A stretch of DNA of 18,909 bases from Candidatus Latescibacterota bacterium (GTDB taxonomy: Bacteria; Latescibacterota; UBA2968). Shown here piece by piece: positions 3,185 through 11,904 of this stretch. The notes under the pieces are model-generated. The model was given only the letters and a program-made list of their open reading frames with translations, did not search any database and was not told the origin of the DNA. Position 1 is the stretch's first letter; each line of letters opens with the position of its first letter. Location: positions 1 through 18,909 of the forward strand of contig JAYODI010000099.1 of the NCBI GenBank assembly GCA_038279365.1, given 5' to 3'. Both the position numbers and the translations under genes were made by a program.

Positions 3185-3337
3185 TTGACCTCACTTTTGT
3201 ATGTGTCGTTTTTGGTAAGGCTTCAAGATATAGATAAATGAATAAAAATCAATTCCTACGTTATACAGGGATTGATTTGTTATAGAAAATAAAATAGGGA
3301 TAAGTGGAAATTGTTGGTACAGTTCCTATGTTCTGTA

Positions 3338-3366
3338 TTGACAATAGAGGATGAAATGTTTACTGT
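3338..3366 (+). promoter_or_regulatory. Putative sigma70 promoter for leader ORF 1
   Basis: TTGACA (3338-3343), 17-nt spacer, TACTGT (3361-3366), about 40 nt before ATG 3409. Confidence 0.6.
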
Positions 3367-3408
3367 TTGGACACGTGTTTTAAATAGAAATTTAATTTGG
3401 TATGGATC

Positions 3409-3678
3409 ATGCGCACGCAAAAAAAACTTATCACACTTGCTGTTATTTTGGTTGTTTCGGCATTTTTCGGTGTCTATGGTCATGCGGTTTTAGATGATCA
3501 TGGTGCTGGAGAAGTGTGTGTTGTTTGTGTCTTTATGCAAACCGGTGGTGCACCCATTGGAGTTGTGTTTTCTCTCACATTGTTTCTCATTTCCTTCGCC
3601 TTGCGCGTTTCTGCTTTTTCCTTCCTTGCTGTTGTCCTTTCTATTGCCACACCTGGTCGTTCACCGCCTATTTCTTAA
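3409..3678 (+). CDS. Small membrane protein / leader peptide 1 with CxxC and C-terminal GRSPP (DUF2946-like)
   Basis: 89 aa: basic N-terminus, hydrophobic segment, GHAVLDDH then CVVC, second hydrophobic stretch, ends PGRSPPIS. Matches the DUF2946 pattern (N-terminal TM/signal, CxxC, C-terminal RxPP). Confidence 0.75.
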   Translation: MRTQKKLITLAVILVVSAFFGVYGHAVLDDHGAGEVCVVCVFMQTGGAPIGVVFSLTLFLISFALRVSAFSFLAVVLSIATPGRSPPIS

Positions 3679-3737
3679 TGTCACGTAAATGATGGTATTT
3701 GATACGATTTGCGTATGATGTTTGTGCTGTACGCAAC

Positions 3738-3767
3738 TTGACAATATGTACGTGTGTCGAGTAGACT
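3738..3767 (+). promoter_or_regulatory. Putative sigma70 promoter for leader ORF 2 and the metal-uptake operon
   Basis: TTGACA (3738-3743), 18-nt spacer, TAGACT (3762-3767), about 40 nt before ATG 3806. Confidence 0.55.
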
Positions 3768-3805
3768 TTAAGAAACTAAGGCTAAACGTCATGTTACCCG
3801 CTTCT

Positions 3806-4087
3806 ATGAACAAACAATCACTGGCCGTTAAGCTGGTGATGGTTCTGATGTTGTGCGCATTTTTTGCCGTTTCTTGGCATGGGTTTGCGGCAGAACATTT
3901 AGACCATGTCCATTTAACAGAACAATGCCAGATCTGTCATTGGTTGCAAACAGCCCTTTGGATAACTGTTTCTGCTACTGCTTTGTACGCGTGGTGTGTG
4001 TACGAACGCATACATATTTTTGCCTCTCTGTTGTTGCCTCTGTTTTCCCTCCAAAGTCCTTCTGGTCGGTCTCCTCCACGTTATTAA
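3806..4087 (+). CDS. Small membrane protein / leader peptide 2 with His cluster, CxxC and C-terminal GRSPP (DUF2946-like)
   Basis: 93 aa from ATG 3806 (alternative ATG 3791): hydrophobic N-terminus, WHGFAAEHLDHVH, CQICH, hydrophobic stretch, ends SGRSPPRY. Same architecture as 3409-3678. Confidence 0.78.
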   Translation: MNKQSLAVKLVMVLMLCAFFAVSWHGFAAEHLDHVHLTEQCQICHWLQTALWITVSATALYAWCVYERIHIFASLLLPLFSLQSPSGRSPPRY

Positions 4088-4176
4088 ATCTTTCTCTTAT
4101 TTTTTTGATAGGCCAACACACATAGTGTGTGTTGGGTGCTTGTGTACACCTGTACTCGGGAGAAGGTTTAATGATG
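4079..4176 (+). promoter_or_regulatory. Predicted mRNA structure sequestering the RBS and start codons of the outer-membrane gene
   Basis: 4079-4092 CGTTATTAAATCTT pairs with 4163-4176 AAGGTTTAATGATG (11 WC + 3 G:U). It encloses a perfect 10-bp hairpin CCAACACACA-TAG-TGTGTGTTGG (4113-4135). Confidence 0.55.
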
Positions 4177-5361
4177 AAGATCTTTCTATTTGTATTGCTC
4201 AGTGGGAGCATGTCTTCCATTTGGGCACAGTCTGTGGTGCCAACCCAGCAAGCATTGTCTGCGTGGTTGCAGACGCAAGGAAGTACAACTGCAACAGGTA
4301 CTTCAACGGCATTTAATCCAGCAATTAGTGTGAATGGTTTGTTTTTGGGGTTCTACACATCGTCGCCCTTTTTGCGCCCGCCTGCTTTTGGTGATGCACA
4401 TGATCACGAAGAGGAACTTGAGGAAGAAGGTCACGAGGGGGATCATGAAGAGGACGATGGGCATGCACATGCACATGGGTTGCCTGAAAGTTCGGGTCTT
4501 CAGGTACAAGAAGTGGAAGTGCGATTTAGCGCTGTTGTGGATGCCTATTTCAAAGCCGATATGACGTTGGCCATTCCGGGAACTGAGAATATTGAACTTG
4601 AAGAAGGTGTGCTTGAAACGATTTTTTTGCCCAGTGTGACGCTAAAAGCGGGTAAATTTTATGGCGCGTTAGGAAAACACAATAACCTGCATACCCATGC
4701 GTTTCCATTTGTGGATCCACCCATTGCCAACGAAAGGCTTTTGGGTGGAGAAGGGTTGAATGAGGTGGGGGTAGGGGCCAGTGTGTTGTTGCCTACAACG
4801 TGGTATTCGGAGTTTCAAGGGCAAGTGTTGAATGGTGATCACGCATTGTTTAACAGTACACGAGATCGCGATTTTGCGTATTTGGGGCGGTGGACAAATC
4901 TGTGGAATGTAAACGATAATGCAACGTTAGAGTTGGGTGGTTCTTATGTGTTTGGCAAAAATGAATTCACCAAATTTTCACAGGTTTGGGGTGGCGATGT
5001 GACGTTTAAGTGGCGACCTGCTCGACAGGTACGAGATCGCGGTTTGACCTTGCAGGCTGAGTATTTGCAGGCACGAGTGGATGATGGGGTTGATATTGAA
5101 AAAGTAGGGGGCATGTATGCACTGGTACAATACCAATTTGCCCGACGCTGGTGGGCACAGGCACGCTACGATGTGTTTGGTATCCCTAAGTTGGCGCCAA
5201 CACGTGAATATCGTGTAAGTGGCTTGTTGACGCTGGCACCCAGTGAATTTTCGGCCATTCGGTTGCAATACAATTTGAATCGTGAAGCGGGGCAAAGCGT
5301 GCATCAATTGGCTTTGCAATTGAATTTTACAATGGGTGCGCATCCTGCTCATGCCTATTGA
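4171..5361 (+). CDS. His/acid-rich outer-membrane beta-barrel protein, probable metal (Zn/Mn/Ni/Co) uptake channel
   Basis: GGAGAAGG RBS, signal peptide ending IWA-Q, tract HDHEEELEEEGHEGDHEEDDGHAHAH, QEVEVRFSAVVDAYF, KHNNLHTH, alternating beta-strand pattern, C-terminal GAHPAHAY; directly upstream of ZnuA/ZnuB-like genes. Confidence 0.75.
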   Translation: MMKIFLFVLLSGSMSSIWAQSVVPTQQALSAWLQTQGSTTATGTSTAFNPAISVNGLFLGFYTSSPFLRPPAFGDAHDHEEELEEEGHEGDHEEDDGHAHAHGLPESSGLQVQEVEVRFSAVVDAYFKADMTLAIPGTENIELEEGVLETIFLPSVTLKAGKFYGALGKHNNLHTHAFPFVDPPIANERLLGGEGLNEVGVGASVLLPTTWYSEFQGQVLNGDHALFNSTRDRDFAYLGRWTNLWNVNDNATLELGGSYVFGKNEFTKFSQVWGGDVTFKWRPARQVRDRGLTLQAEYLQARVDDGVDIEKVGGMYALVQYQFARRWWAQARYDVFGIPKLAPTREYRVSGLLTLAPSEFSAIRLQYNLNREAGQSVHQLALQLNFTMGAHPAHAY

Positions 5362-5405: not shown

Positions 5406-5474
5406 GGACATTTGAATTTGTGAAACATAATGATGCCATTGTACTATGACTTTGTGATAATCAGGAGTGTGACG

Positions 5475-6386
5475 ATGAATCGCATGATTTTTGGGATTGT
5501 CTCATTTGTAATGATTTTAACTATGAATAGTGATGCAAAAATTCGGGTGGTGACCACCACGACCGATTTGGGAGCGATTGTGAAAGCTGTGGGTGGTGAT
5601 GAGGTGGATGTTGAGGTGATTGCAAAAGGCTATCAAGACCCGCACTATGTGCAGGCCAAGCCGAGTTATATGCGACTCATGAATCGGGCAGATTTGTTGG
5701 TGTATGTGGGCATGGAACTTGAGGTGGGGTGGTTGCCTCTTTTGATTCAGGGTGCGCGCAACCCCAATATTGTGCCTGGTGCCATGGGGCATTTGGATGC
5801 ATCGATTGGTATTCGACGCTTGGATGTGCCCACGGGGCAAGTGGATCGGTCGATGGGTGATGTGCATCCTGATGGCAACCCACACTATTGGCTTGATCCG
5901 CGAAATGGGATTGTGATTGCAAAAACTGTTGCTGAAAAATTAAGTGCATTGGAGCCCGACAAAGCCAATGTGTTTATGGCCAATTATAAAACTTTTCAGG
6001 CTGACTTAGAAGCGCGGATAGATACCTGGAAAAAGCAGTTGGCGCATTTTGAAGGACAAAAAATGGTCAGCTATCACAAGTTGTGGGTCTATTTATCTGA
6101 TTGGTTGCAATTTGAGGTGGTGGATCAAGTAGAGAATAAAGCGGGTATTCCGCCGAGCCCGCGCCATTTGGCTGATTTGGTGGCACGCATGAAGTCTGAG
6201 CAGATCCGTTTGATTGTGTGTTCGAATTTTGTCGATACAAAGATTGCTCAGCGTGTGGCCGAGCGGTCACAGGCCAAGTTGGTTGTTTTACCTGCATCTG
6301 TTGGTGCTGTTTCGGGTGTGGAGACCTATGCCGATTTGTTTGATTATATTGTTGCGCAGTTGGGTTCGGTGAATGAGGAGATGTGA
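5475..6386 (+). CDS. Metal ABC transporter substrate-binding protein (ZnuA/TroA family)
   Basis: AGGAG RBS, signal peptide, VVTTTTDL, QDPHY, ADLLVYVGMELE, HPDGNPHYWLDP, SYHK, GIPPSPRHL. Confidence 0.93.
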   Translation: MNRMIFGIVSFVMILTMNSDAKIRVVTTTTDLGAIVKAVGGDEVDVEVIAKGYQDPHYVQAKPSYMRLMNRADLLVYVGMELEVGWLPLLIQGARNPNIVPGAMGHLDASIGIRRLDVPTGQVDRSMGDVHPDGNPHYWLDPRNGIVIAKTVAEKLSALEPDKANVFMANYKTFQADLEARIDTWKKQLAHFEGQKMVSYHKLWVYLSDWLQFEVVDQVENKAGIPPSPRHLADLVARMKSEQIRLIVCSNFVDTKIAQRVAERSQAKLVVLPASVGAVSGVETYADLFDYIVAQLGSVNEEM

Positions 6387-7201
6387 TGAGTGATTTTTTA
6401 TTTTTGATGGCGGCCCCTTTTGTGGCATGTTTGATTTTGGTAGGTATTCATGCCTATTTGGGGTTGCATGTGCTGGCTCGTGGTGTGATTTTTGTCGATT
6501 TGTCTTTGGCTCAAATTGCGGCATTTGGCAGTACGCTTGCTTTTTTGTTTGGATATGATTTGCACAGTGGTGCAGCGTATGTGATTTCGTTGGTTGCTAC
6601 ATTTGTTGGCGCAGGCGTGTTTGCTCTTACGCGCTTGCGCCATGCGCGTATTCCGCAGGAGGCGATTATTGGCATTGTATATGCCGTGTCGGCGGCAGCG
6701 GGTATTTTGGCCATTGATCGGGCCCCACATGGTGCCGAGCATGTGAAGCAGATGCTGGTGGGGTCTATTTTGTGGGTGACTTGGGTAGATGTGGCCAAAA
6801 CAGCGGGGATTTATGCGCTTGTGGGTTTGTTTCACTGGGTGTTTCGCAATCGTTTTTTGGCCTTGTCGTTTGATGAAAACCGTGCGCATCGTGAAGGGTG
6901 GTCGGTACGTGGGTGGGATTTTTTATTTTATGCATCATTTGGTTTTGTGATTACCAGTTCTGTTGAAATTGCTGGGGTTTTACTGGTGTTTTCTTTTTTG
7001 GTGGTGCCTGCTGTATGTGCGGTATTGTTTTCAGAAGCAATCAGTACGCGTTTGTTTTTGGGGTGGGTCATTGGGTTTGTTGTGAGTGCGTTGGGGTGTT
7101 CGGCATCTTATGTTTTTGATTTGCCAACTGGGGCAACTGTGGTGTGTATGTTTGGCACTGTCTTGTTGGTATTGGCACTGTTTCGCAAAGTTTGGGTGTG
7201 A
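6383..7201 (+). CDS. Metal ABC transporter permease (ZnuB/ABC-3 family)
   Basis: Overlaps the upstream stop. Multi-TM protein with LGLHVLARGVIFVDLSLAQ, EAIIGIVY, LVGSIL, AGVLLVFSFLVVPA, DLPTGATVV. Confidence 0.93.
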   Translation: MMSDFLFLMAAPFVACLILVGIHAYLGLHVLARGVIFVDLSLAQIAAFGSTLAFLFGYDLHSGAAYVISLVATFVGAGVFALTRLRHARIPQEAIIGIVYAVSAAAGILAIDRAPHGAEHVKQMLVGSILWVTWVDVAKTAGIYALVGLFHWVFRNRFLALSFDENRAHREGWSVRGWDFLFYASFGFVITSSVEIAGVLLVFSFLVVPAVCAVLFSEAISTRLFLGWVIGFVVSALGCSASYVFDLPTGATVVCMFGTVLLVLALFRKVWV

Positions 7202-7289
7202 ATTTGTACTTGTTCAAGTAGGGTTGCTCGGTATATTAAATATGTGAAACGTTGCCACATATTTTGAACATTTTAAGGGGATGATATTT

Positions 7290-8015
7290 ATGCAACACGC
7301 ACATGGTGAAGGCAAAGAAGCATTGGATATTTTGGAACACGGGGCACCTGTTGATGGACAACCTCAAAGCACCGATCGACGGTTGTACATGCAATTTCAA
7401 GCGTTTACAGGGGTTACCGAAACCGATGAGGTGATTGCGGTATTGGAAGGCAGCGGTTTGGATGCAGCACTTTATGTGGATGCAAATGATCCTTATGGCA
7501 TTGGTGTGGTGTTTATGACCGAGTCTGCAGATGTTTTGGTGACCGATGTACGGGCACTGTTGAACAGTGAGCCATTTGATGTGTTGGATCATCGGCCTGA
7601 ATTTACGATGCTGGGGCGTACGTATGCAACGGGTTATGAACCCGACTTGGAACATGCATTAATTGAACGTCCTAAGAGCAATGTGCTCAACCCTGATTGG
7701 CCGTGGGGCATTTGGTATCCATTGCGTCGCAATGGTGCTTTTGCTGGGTTAGATCACAAAGAGCAACGCCAGATTTTGATGGAACATGCGTCTATTGGTC
7801 GCGCATATGGGCGAGCGGGTTTTGCACACGATGTGCGGTTGGCGTGTTATGGTTTGGATGCCAATGACAATGATTTTGTGATTGGTCTTATTGGTGCAGA
7901 ATTGTATCCGCTGTCGCGGGTTGTGCAAGATATGAGAAAGACACAACAAACGGCATTGTATGTCGATTCATTGGGGCCGTTTTTTGTGGGCAAGAAGATT
8001 TGGCAAAAGAAATAA
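7290..8015 (+). CDS. Chlorite dismutase / coproheme decarboxylase (Cld/ChdC/HemQ) family heme protein
   Basis: C-terminal domain WYPLRR...ILMEHASIGRAY...CYGLDANDNDFVIGL...LSRVVQDMRKT...GPFFVG. ATG 7290 is best spaced from AAGGGG (alternative 7281). Confidence 0.82.
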   Translation: MQHAHGEGKEALDILEHGAPVDGQPQSTDRRLYMQFQAFTGVTETDEVIAVLEGSGLDAALYVDANDPYGIGVVFMTESADVLVTDVRALLNSEPFDVLDHRPEFTMLGRTYATGYEPDLEHALIERPKSNVLNPDWPWGIWYPLRRNGAFAGLDHKEQRQILMEHASIGRAYGRAGFAHDVRLACYGLDANDNDFVIGLIGAELYPLSRVVQDMRKTQQTALYVDSLGPFFVGKKIWQKK

Positions 8016-11412: not shown

Positions 11413-11904
11413 GTGTCAGAAGAAAATAAAAATTTAATGCACATTGGCAAGTTGGCAAAAGCCGCTGGCACAACAACACGTACGGTGCGTTTTTATGAAG
11501 AAATGGGTTTGATCAAGCCCGAATGTCGAAGTGAAGGTGGGTTTCGATGTTATTGTCACGATCAGTTGACTCGGTTGCGTATGATATTGGGTTTAAAGGA
11601 GATGGCTTTTGATCTGGATCAGATCAAAGCCATTTTGTGCAAGCAAGATGTTCACGAAACAGGTGGTCAACTTGCACATTCTATTTTAGAAGATCTAAAT
11701 GTTCAGCTTCAAGATGTGGATGCACAAATTGCCCATTTGCAATGTGTGCGTGACAAATTAACCCAAACGATTACGAGTATATGTGAGTGTTTGCCCTGTC
11801 ACAGGCGTGTTGCAGAACGTCTTTGCACGGCCTGTTCGGTACTCAAAGAAACAAAATGTCAGTCTGTATCTTTCTTTCACCAGGTAGAACAAATAAATGG
11901 TTGA
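11413..11904 (+). CDS. MerR-family transcriptional regulator with Cys-rich C-terminus
   Basis: HTH IGKLAKAAGTTTRTVRFYEEMGLI..RSEGGFRCY, LKEMAFDLDQIK, coiled coil, CECLPC-x8-CTAC tail. GAGGT RBS, GTG start. Confidence 0.92.
   Translation: MSEENKNLMHIGKLAKAAGTTTRTVRFYEEMGLIKPECRSEGGFRCYCHDQLTRLRMILGLKEMAFDLDQIKAILCKQDVHETGGQLAHSILEDLNVQLQDVDAQIAHLQCVRDKLTQTITSICECLPCHRRVAERLCTACSVLKETKCQSVSFFHQVEQING

Follow-up and report, generated by a model that had tools for sequence, protein, structure and literature searches.

Gene organization of the locus

The window, by which is meant the whole stretch of Candidatus Latescibacterota DNA that was analysed (18,909 nucleotides), carries two short upstream open reading frames, uORF1 and uORF2, followed by genes for a barrel-like outer-membrane protein, a ZnuA-type metal-binding protein and an ABC-3 family permease (Table 1). 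The uORF, the barrel gene and the genes for the binding protein and the permease all lie on one strand, and uORF2 is separated from the barrel gene by 83 nt.

Table 1. Features of the leader and cassette region, with positions counted from the first nucleotide of the window.
Feature	Positions	Strand	Basis
uORF1, 89-residue paralogue of uORF2	3409..3678	+	sequence comparison
Sigma-70-like promoter match (TTGACA-18-TAGACT) upstream of uORF2	3738..3767	+	10/12 consensus matches only
uORF2 ("leader ORF 2"), 98 residues	3791..4087	+	ORF, family alignment, hydropathy
CxxC codons of uORF2 (C46, C49)	3926..3937	+	invariant in 50/50 family members
Pyrimidine-rich stretch within uORF2, candidate back-up anti-SD	4029..4049	+	folding with 4058-4088 blocked
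RSPP codons CGG TCT CCT CCA, presumed arrest motif	4067..4078	+	sequence; R, P, P invariant in family
5' arm of masking helix (last two codons, TAA, CU-rich tract)	4079..4098	+	sequence and folding
Perfect 10-bp hairpin with 3-nt loop, inside the loop of the helix	4113..4135	+	sequence and folding
TGTGTACACCTGT: palindromic GTGTACAC overlapping TACAnnTGTA	4141..4153	.	in-place conservation, four related junctions
3' arm of masking helix: GGGAGAAGG (SD) and ATGATG (both candidate start codons)	4158..4176	+	sequence and folding
Outer-membrane barrel-like protein, 396 residues	4171..5361	+	profile and sequence searches
ZnuA-type (cluster A-I) metal-binding protein, ABC importer	5430..6386	+	PF01297, E 3.4e-54
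ABC-3 family metal importer permease	6383..7201	+	PF00950, E 2.1e-34

The two leader peptides share a common layout. uORF2 consists of a hydrophobic N-terminal segment (residues 9–27, with 15-residue hydropathy windows peaking at 2.65), a His-rich stretch, a CQIC motif and a second, moderately hydrophobic stretch, and closes with GRSPP, the residues RY and the stop codon, the last two codons and the TAA occupying 4079–4087. uORF1 has a hydrophobic N-terminus and a CVVC motif which is followed by 43 residues, RSPP, the residues IS and the stop codon; the distance from CxxC to RSPP is thus 43 residues in both. A ribosome stalled at the RSPP of uORF2 would presumably, as in the RAPP peptides, have its P site at 4073–4075 and its A site at 4076–4078. 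The promoter-like sequence upstream of uORF2 is nearly identical in a same-genus relative (L002).

The barrel-like protein has an N-terminus that resembles a signal peptide, an acidic stretch rich in His and a C-terminal GxHPAHxY that is conserved. The preliminary description of this DNA had called it a porin, a name which is weakly supported: Pfam gave no match for the protein of the window, while weak matches to Porin_O_P (5/48) and BBP2 (3/48) were found among 48 homologues. Profile searches for a relative of solved structure returned none that was convincing. Its neighbours in the ESM-Atlas bear the automatic names 'zinc-regulated ... outer membrane receptor family' and 'putative porin', to be taken as leads only, and its His-rich stretch resembles the zinc-binding PA4063 (E 0.011). 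By sequence, the cassette as a whole looks like an importer.

Contigs from the RNA libraries of two metatranscriptome runs are identical to parts of uORF1 (3393–3569 and 3519–3655), RNA-library contigs not being in themselves proof of transcription; none of them covers the junction between uORF2 and the barrel gene. A 37-nt RNA-library piece that matches 4092–4128 was rejected as coming from another locus, since it has 6 mismatches and unlike flanks.

The leader protein family and its cassette

A profile built from eight leaders was searched against 1.84 billion representative sequences (E up to 0.001) and returned 47 clusters, all of about 82–137 residues and all having a CxxC motif and, a few residues from the C-terminal end, R-[A/S/G]-P-P. 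In an alignment of 50 leaders, C46, C49, R93, P95 and P96 are the only residues that are invariant (50/50); H30 is conserved in at least 90% and the mean column identity is 20%. The Pro-Pro motif that the preliminary description had placed just upstream of the helix is therefore a conserved, RAPP-type feature of the family, with R, P and P present in 50/50 members. The spacing from CxxC to the arginine is 41–44 residues in 36 of 38 distinct CxxC-bearing relatives. Among 64 distinct tails, the motif reads RAPP in 49, RGPP in 7, RSPP in 6 and RPPP and RDPP in one each, and its position is fixed at 2–6 residues before the stop. A second leader class, found in 26 of the 64 tails, carries LPLHFH...KEC[S/G]C in place of CxxC. 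As judged from these alignments, RSPP appears to be a natural and conserved variant of the stall core in this family.

Neither of the window's uORFs has a Pfam match at E up to 0.01, and DUF2946 (PF11162) is not among the matches of uORF2 at E up to 1. When the whole genome was searched in six frames for DUF2946, at E up to 10, nothing was found at the locus and one weak match on another contig. Among the family members, DUF2946 is the commonest weak match (13/50, best E 0.0027). The family of uORF2 can thus be described, from its sequences, as one of unannotated proteins of about 95 residues which seem to have the anatomy of the CruR and CutF metal-sensing leaders.

Alignment scans with the barrel protein identified 17 related loci in genomes and 80 in metagenomes. 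In 71 of these the sequence extends 500 nt or more upstream of the barrel gene, and in 67 of the 71 an upstream ORF ends with R[ASGDP]PP plus 2–6 residues, the exceptions being L020, L050, L083 and L087. The distance from the stop codon of this ORF to the start of the barrel gene has a median of 89 nt and is between 66 and 105 nt in 56/71 loci. A ZnuA-type gene directly follows the barrel gene in 86 of the 97 loci; of the 11 that lack one, 10 are on contigs that end just past the barrel gene. The MAGs with the cassette are labelled Latescibacterota, Nitrospinaceae, Binatia, Gemmatimonadetes, Calditrichota, Ignavibacteriaceae and Cytophagia. The cassette thus appears to be regularly headed by a Cys/His leader with a putative stall motif. 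No account of a ZnuA-type cassette with such a leader was found in the literature searched, the main text of key papers included.

A predicted helix masks the ribosome-binding site of the barrel gene

The nucleotides that directly follow the RSPP codons are the antiparallel complement of the SD and both start codons of the barrel gene. On reading the sequence, 4079–4092 (CGUUAUUAAAUCUU) and 4163–4176 (AAGGUUUAAUGAUG) form 14 contiguous pairs, ten of them A-U or G-U and three of these G:U (4080-4175, 4082-4173 and 4089-4166). The second ATG of the barrel gene is the position that aligns with the ATG of the same-genus relative. The helix and the perfect hairpin within its loop had both been put forward in the preliminary description, and both are exact, the coordinates of the helix included. 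The hairpin has no T-rich tail, and no terminator is called for it.

The folding calculation proposed earlier for 4040–4200 bears the helix out: with ViennaRNA it is found in both the MFE and the centroid structure (z −2.90; 2/200 shuffles as good), and the same is true of the shorter segment 4067–4180 (z −4.53; 0/200 shuffles as good). The ten pairs between 4167–4176 and 4079–4088, which lie over UUUAAUGAUG, have probabilities of 0.93–1.00, while those of AAGG (4163–4166) are 0.54–0.83. An extension had also been suggested in which, past a 1-nt bulge, 4094–4098 (CUCUU) would pair with 4158–4162 (GGGAG). Its inner part stands, with 4161–4162 pairing with 4094–4095 at a probability of 0.69–0.73, but 4158–4160 favour a local partner, 4149–4151, in a small hairpin (0.52–0.55). 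The palindrome at 4141–4153 is a possible protein operator or small hairpin.

The burial of the SD and both ATGs that had been proposed is likewise found in the calculations. Opening the 16-nt SD/start zone of the barrel gene costs 15.4 kcal/mol. At 16 further start sites of the window the cost is 2.3–9.3 kcal/mol, so that among the 17 sites tested the one of the barrel gene is the most deeply buried. The duplex between the two arms has an energy of −18.5 kcal/mol (z −2.76; when the 5' zone is dinucleotide-shuffled, 3/200 are as good), and none of 264 other windows of the same locus pairs equally well with this ribosome-binding site. The share of the pairing of the ribosome-binding site that goes to the stall/stop zone is 0.86; 2/20 shuffles of the zone score higher, so that the pyrimidine-rich composition explains part of the signal in the window.

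An Rfam scan of 3200–4400 at E up to 1 found no riboswitch or leader family, the single below-threshold match being a chance one to a nematode snoRNA. Among the strain variants in public runs, the sole diverged strain (X7) is unchanged across 4023–4209 and thus carries no covariation data.

A corresponding arrangement between the two leaders was considered and rejected. The MFE structure pairs the tail of uORF1 with the SD of uORF2, but the fixed-zone duplex is unexceptional (−8.3 kcal/mol), 49% of 300 windows of the same locus being equal or better.

SD masking among the relatives

Fifty dereplicated junctions were folded, each segment starting 60 nt ahead of the motif and including the first 30 nt of the barrel gene. 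The stall/stop zone was defined as beginning at the first Pro codon and extending about 10 nt beyond the stop; it makes up 16% of the available bases. The median pairing probability of the SD/start zone is 0.70, and a median of 63% of this pairing goes to the stall/stop zone; the partner seen in the window thus holds for most relatives. The share is at least 0.5 in 33/50 loci and at least twice the expectation in 41/50. When the stall/stop zone is dinucleotide-shuffled the median share is 26%, the observed share exceeding the shuffle median of the same locus in 43/50 and at least 19 of its 20 shuffles in 13/50.

Duplex energies point in the same direction. The mean for 5' zones with the SD zones of their own loci is −16.4 kcal/mol, compared with −12.95 kcal/mol for mismatched loci (0/20,000 permutations as low), a contrast that is inflated in part by shared G+C content. 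The window's own 5' zone is the best of the 50 as a partner for its SD zone. Against composition-preserving shuffles the mean z over the 50 loci is −1.24, with only 15/50 individually within the best 5%, and 10/50 loci are within the best 1% of windows from the same locus. Much of the family-wide pairing signal is pyrimidine-rich composition.

The check for covariation, which had been asked of relatives at the outset, came out divided. The core helix persists in the same-genus relative (L002 = L006), with a double change of A4083-U4172 to G-C and three one-sided changes, and the terminal pair is lost; the six-sequence alignment of the window's subfamily is unaligned at the 3' end, and this pairwise comparison is limited to the window and L006. 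In contrast to these pair-preserving changes, RNAalifold gave no masking-helix consensus for the 19 alignable junctions of the second leader class, a sister subfamily; its consensus there has 5 pairs, between the 5' arm of the inner hairpin and the SD (−0.46 kcal/mol). Two versions of a fixed-column helix gave 63% and 57% of paired cells in these 19 junctions, and 68 and 64 of 500 shuffles, respectively, were as high. Since fixed-column helices fail against shuffles, the position of the anti-SD varies among loci: in some it is CCUCC, supplied by the Pro codons themselves, in some the tail together with the stop codons, and in some an arm of the inner hairpin. This argues for a design in which the SD is masked by a pyrimidine tract located at the stall site or immediately downstream of it, rather than for one conserved helix.

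Predicted effect of ribosomes on the masked site

A ribosome with its P site at 4073–4075 would cover the mRNA to about 4088, and with it approximately 10 of the 14 nucleotides in the 5' arm. For several states of the leader, the energy needed to open the SD/start zone was calculated in a 194-nt context. For free mRNA with no ribosome it is 15.4 kcal/mol, and this is lowered to 11.8 kcal/mol by one ribosome stalled at RSPP, to 8.6 kcal/mol by a stalled and a trailing ribosome, and to 11.7 kcal/mol by a ribosome terminating at the stop codon. In a longer context the cost with a stalled ribosome is 8.8 kcal/mol. A residual cost remains with the stalled ribosome because the SD pairs again with 4029–4049 inside uORF2, the partner predicted for the SD/start zone once 4058–4088 is blocked. 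This stretch is part of a region poor in G and rich in C.

The proposal that an arrested ribosome would free the ribosome-binding site is thus borne out in part: the cost drops from 15.4 to 11.8 kcal/mol, but only about 10 of the 14 arm bases are covered and 4029–4049 pairs anew. In silico, the opening of the site by a stalled ribosome is partial. As a terminating ribosome opens it equally (11.7 kcal/mol), arrest is not needed for opening. Among the 50 junctions, the opening cost falls by at least 3 kcal/mol with a footprint at the stall site in 20/50, with one at the stop in 18/50, and with one 30 nt upstream in 2/50.

Comparison with known arrest leaders

The preliminary description had likened the locus to the SecM and MifM switches. 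Both systems have in common with the design proposed for the locus the stall-dependent opening of an SD-occluding structure. Their downstream genes, however, are secA or yidC, the stall is released when export or insertion pulls on the chain, and they have no metal-binding motif. The logic of stall-dependent control does have direct precedent in the literature, but in CruR and CutF and not in SecM and MifM.

CruR (Bp2923) of Bordetella pertussis, a member of the DUF2946 family, is described as having CXXC, 45 residues, RAPP, three residues and the stop, with a CXXC-RAPP spacing that is constant to within 1–2 residues; copper acting through the CXXC relieves the RAPP arrest, which leads to Rho-dependent termination before the uptake gene (PMC9426467). 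Toeprinting of CruR placed its two Pro codons in the ribosomal P and A sites (PMC12992588). The leaders of the window resemble CruR in the N-terminal export or membrane signal, the invariant CxxC, the fixed spacing (43 residues here and 45 in CruR), the R-x-P-P and the tail of 2–3 residues. In both cases the leader stands first, ahead of the gene for an outer-membrane protein of metal uptake (a putative one here), and the same polarity is expected, with metal relieving the stall and uptake switched off. They differ in that the motif is RSPP here and RAPP in CruR, that the spacer is 83 nt here and 162 nt in CruR, and that the uORFs of the window fail the Pfam DUF2946 profile. The cassette is also different, with a barrel of about 400 residues and a ZnuA-type ABC importer here versus a TonB-dependent transporter and a PepSY protein. 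The output of CruR is Rho-dependent, and an SD-masking helix is not described for CruR in the accessible text of PMC9426467.

In CutF of Rhodobacter capsulatus, a stall at a C-terminal proline motif is reported to allow time for the melting of a stem-loop in which the SD of the following gene is shielded (PMC9973294). The window shares the C-terminal proline motif of the presumed stall and an SD-shielding structure within reach, in silico, of a stalled ribosome. uORF2 further has the traits by which CutF-like proteins are recognized in that account: it is shorter than 150 residues, has PP within its last 15 residues (95–96), a hydrophobic N-terminus and a same-strand gene within less than 1000 nt, and its spacer is below 100 nt, as in most CutF-like cases (PMC9973294). 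It differs in having CxxC and RSPP where CutF has CxxxC and PPP. Copper is described as inducing the CutF stall, which turns on a detoxifying oxidase, whereas the cassette here resembles an importer, for which the opposite polarity would be expected. None of the words ZnuA, porin, zinc and ABC occurs in the main text of PMC9973294. 'CutF-like' proteins are also treated in bioRxiv 10.1101/2025.02.05.636593.

The RAPP-type class (ApdA, ApdP and the RAPP/RGPP small proteins) has in common with the window a near-C-terminal R-x-P-P in a small exported protein upstream of the regulated gene (PMC10951233, PMC10987492, PMC12992588). In stalled ribosomes of this class, the P and A sites are occupied by the two Pro codons. 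The Ala-to-Ser change to RSPP is reported to be 'partially permissive' in ApdA/ApdP as regards arrest, and proteomes contain this sequence far less often than expected (PMC12992588). ApdA and ApdP are described as monitors of Sec/YidC, and RSPP is a mutant form there, while here it is natural (6/64 tails). Taken by analogy, the locus would thus be CruR-like in its context and expected polarity, and CutF-like in the masking of the SD.

Proposed mechanism and competing interpretations

We consider it probable, with some reserve, that uORF2 is a regulatory leader of the CruR/CutF kind, in which metal sensing and arrest at RSPP are coupled to the masking of the SD of the barrel gene. The peptide would be short and either exported or lodged in the membrane. 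Its Cys/His motif would sense metal during synthesis, before the chain leaves the ribosome, and its C-terminal R-S-P-P would stall the ribosome two codons before the uORF2 stop. In free mRNA, the bases after the stall motif would pair with the SD and starts of the barrel gene and shut off its translation. A ribosome at RSPP or at the stop codon would occupy or unwind the 5' arm, so that a new ribosome could load on the barrel gene, and the length of the stall would set the time for which the site is open. Because the cassette looks like an importer, we infer that the polarity is likely that of CruR: when metal is scarce the stall would last and uptake would be on, and when metal is bound the stall would be relieved, the helix would re-form and uptake would be off. 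Of this scheme, the analysis itself bears out the helix, the burial of the site, the conservation of the motif, its spacing and the cassette, and the statistical bias of the site toward the stall/stop zone; arrest at RSPP, its modulation by a metal, the identity of that metal and the polarity are inferences.

An unlikely alternative, but the one with the closest characterised model, is that the output is transcriptional, as in CruR: the RSPP stall would mainly shield the transcript from Rho between uORF2 and the barrel gene (with an intrinsic terminator in place of Rho in some relatives), and the SD-masking helix would be auxiliary or incidental. CruR is anatomically the nearest of the characterised leaders, and a Rho output is what the available text of PMC9426467 reports for it. 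The 3' part of uORF2 and the beginning of the spacer are C-rich and G-poor (C/G 1.9–2.3 in 78-nt windows starting at 4000–4040), like the 'C>G bubble' of the rut region of cruR as described there, and a hairpin with a T-rich tail lies 20–43 nt before the start codon in 11/50 related spacers. The spacer of the window itself, however, has no terminator-like site, and this explanation does not account for the most deeply buried ribosome-binding site of the window, nor for the stall/stop zone being its partner in most loci. A Rho output and SD masking are compatible and not exclusive.

It is distinctly improbable that the arrangement is one of plain translational coupling, in which uORF2 would be a working small membrane protein, binding metal or serving as a chaperone, and the finishing ribosome would unwind the helix with no regulated arrest. 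The near identity of the opening costs for terminating and stalled ribosomes (11.7 and 11.8 kcal/mol in the window; medians of 8.0 and 8.1 kcal/mol over the 50 loci) is what such coupling would give, and uORFs of about 90–100 residues with conserved His, Cys and hydrophobic segments could encode such a protein. Yet with only five invariant residues and a mean identity of 20%, the family fits a sensor-plus-stall peptide better than a folded protein. Coupling also makes it hard to explain why R-x-P-P, described as among the most avoided bacterial tetrapeptides unless used for arrest (PMC12992588), is fixed 2–6 residues before the stop in 64 distinct tails.

That an AU/CU-rich tail should be complementary to a purine-rich ribosome-binding site by chance, or that the palindromes at 4113–4135 and 4141–4153 are DNA operators and the helix has no role, is scarcely credible: ten of the 14 pairs are A-U or G-U, 2/20 zone shuffles reach an equal or higher share and a TGTGTACAC-type sequence is kept in four related spacers, but the fold is exceptional (z −4.5, 0/200 shuffles), 0/264 windows of the same locus pair equally, the same-genus relative has pair-preserving changes and there is an excess across the family.

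Within the preferred reading of a metal-sensing arrest leader that masks the SD, a more elaborate version may be imagined, which we regard as improbable. The two tandem RSPP leaders would then act together as a nascent-chain sensor in two stages, responding to some metal other than copper, with uORF1 gating uORF2 and uORF2 gating the barrel gene. Sensing would take place on the loop between the two hydrophobic segments, where metal binding would alter the pulling force that releases the stall. Zinc is the obvious candidate, in view of the ZnuA-type importer and the His-rich barrel. If it were true, this would be the first case of arrest-peptide control of a ZnuA-type importer.

Implications

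Experimental dissection of metal-sensing arrest leaders is confined to two proteobacteria (CruR and CutF), and both leaders respond to copper. The same leader anatomy is found here and in about 70 relatives, before a different and unannotated cassette of a barrel protein, a ZnuA-type binding protein and a permease. The leader family is missed by the Pfam model for DUF2946, and RSPP appears, from its sequences, to be a natural stall motif in it. The locus joins an uptake context of the CruR type to a predicted SD-masking output of the CutF type, and its junction of about 110 nt offers a compact and testable system for how the duration of a stall becomes translation of the next gene. Leaders of this kind stay unannotated or 'hypothetical', and the genes downstream of them are easily mistaken for constitutively expressed ones.

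Tandem leaders and strain variation

uORF1 shares the design of uORF2, the small leader protein gene that follows it, and forms a second leader in tandem with it. Leaders with an R-x-P-P motif are also found in tandem at the related loci L006 (from a relative of the same genus), L009, L011, L058, L060, L064, L067 and L072. In the minimum-energy fold the tail of uORF1, CCU AUU UCU UAA, is paired with the ribosome-binding region of uORF2 (3769-3793); in the fixed-zone duplex test, this pairing was not above that of random windows.

Comparison of the window with a diverged strain in the public sequencing run X7, over positions 3386-4318, shows 18 differing positions and one deletion within 3386-3953, and no differences in 4023-4209, a segment that runs from the last part of uORF2 through the spacer into the beginning of the barrel-protein gene. 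Contigs identical to parts of uORF1 (window 3393-3655) are present in two metatranscriptome runs from different studies (X15 and X19). One of these contigs is a fragment of 137 nt bordered by adapter sequence.

Palindrome in the spacer and neighbouring genes

The spacer contains a palindromic element whose dyad presumably resembles operators of the CopY/BlaI type. Allowing at most two mismatches, TGTGTACACCTGT has 3 matches in the window against 0.65 expected, and 9 of 200 shuffles also attain 3; similar sequence lies at the same position in three related loci (L006, L007 and L027).

Features of the window and loci with the second leader class
Feature	Position or loci	Remarks
Palindromic element TGTGTACACCTGT	4141-4153; also 3366-3378	includes the palindromic sequence GTGTACAC together with a TACAnnTGTA-like dyad
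uORF1	3409-3678
uORF2	3791-4087
Barrel-protein gene	4171-5361
Chlorite-dismutase/HemQ-like gene	7281-8015	PF06778, E 5.7e-11; next gene after the cassette
MerR-family regulator gene	11413-11904	about 4 kb downstream of the cassette
Second leader class, upstream ORFs	L010, L030, L032, L035, L037, L038, L040, L045, L046, L049, L051-L054, L057, L061-L063, L066, L070

No ABC ATPase gene was found adjoining the binding-protein and permease genes (window 5430-8015). The HemQ-like gene follows the cassette in L006 as well.

In the alignment of the barrel-protein family (A6), H174, H176, H391 and H394 are invariant, and the C-terminus carries a GxHPAHxY motif. Family members show weak coiled-coil-type matches to SlyX (9/48) and DivIC (7/48). 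The stretch after the signal peptide appears coiled-coil-like by eye in many relatives; at this place the window protein has an acidic, His-rich stretch.

A second leader class and hairpins in related spacers

The same cassette is also preceded by another class of leader, which lacks the CxxC motif and features LPLHFH, then KEC[S/G]C, then RTQ, ending in [IS]RAPP plus 2-5 residues. CxxC is absent from 26 of the 64 distinct leader tails, and the majority of these 26 belong to this second class.

In 11 of 50 related spacers (for example those of L010, L035, L037, L057 and L066), a G+C-rich hairpin followed by a T-rich tail lies 20-43 nt upstream of the start codon, an arrangement that looks like an attenuator. 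The G+C-rich spacer hairpins are frequently of the form CCCUCCC...GGGAGGG, and the arrangement supplies a decoy ribosome-binding site together with a second anti-SD sequence.
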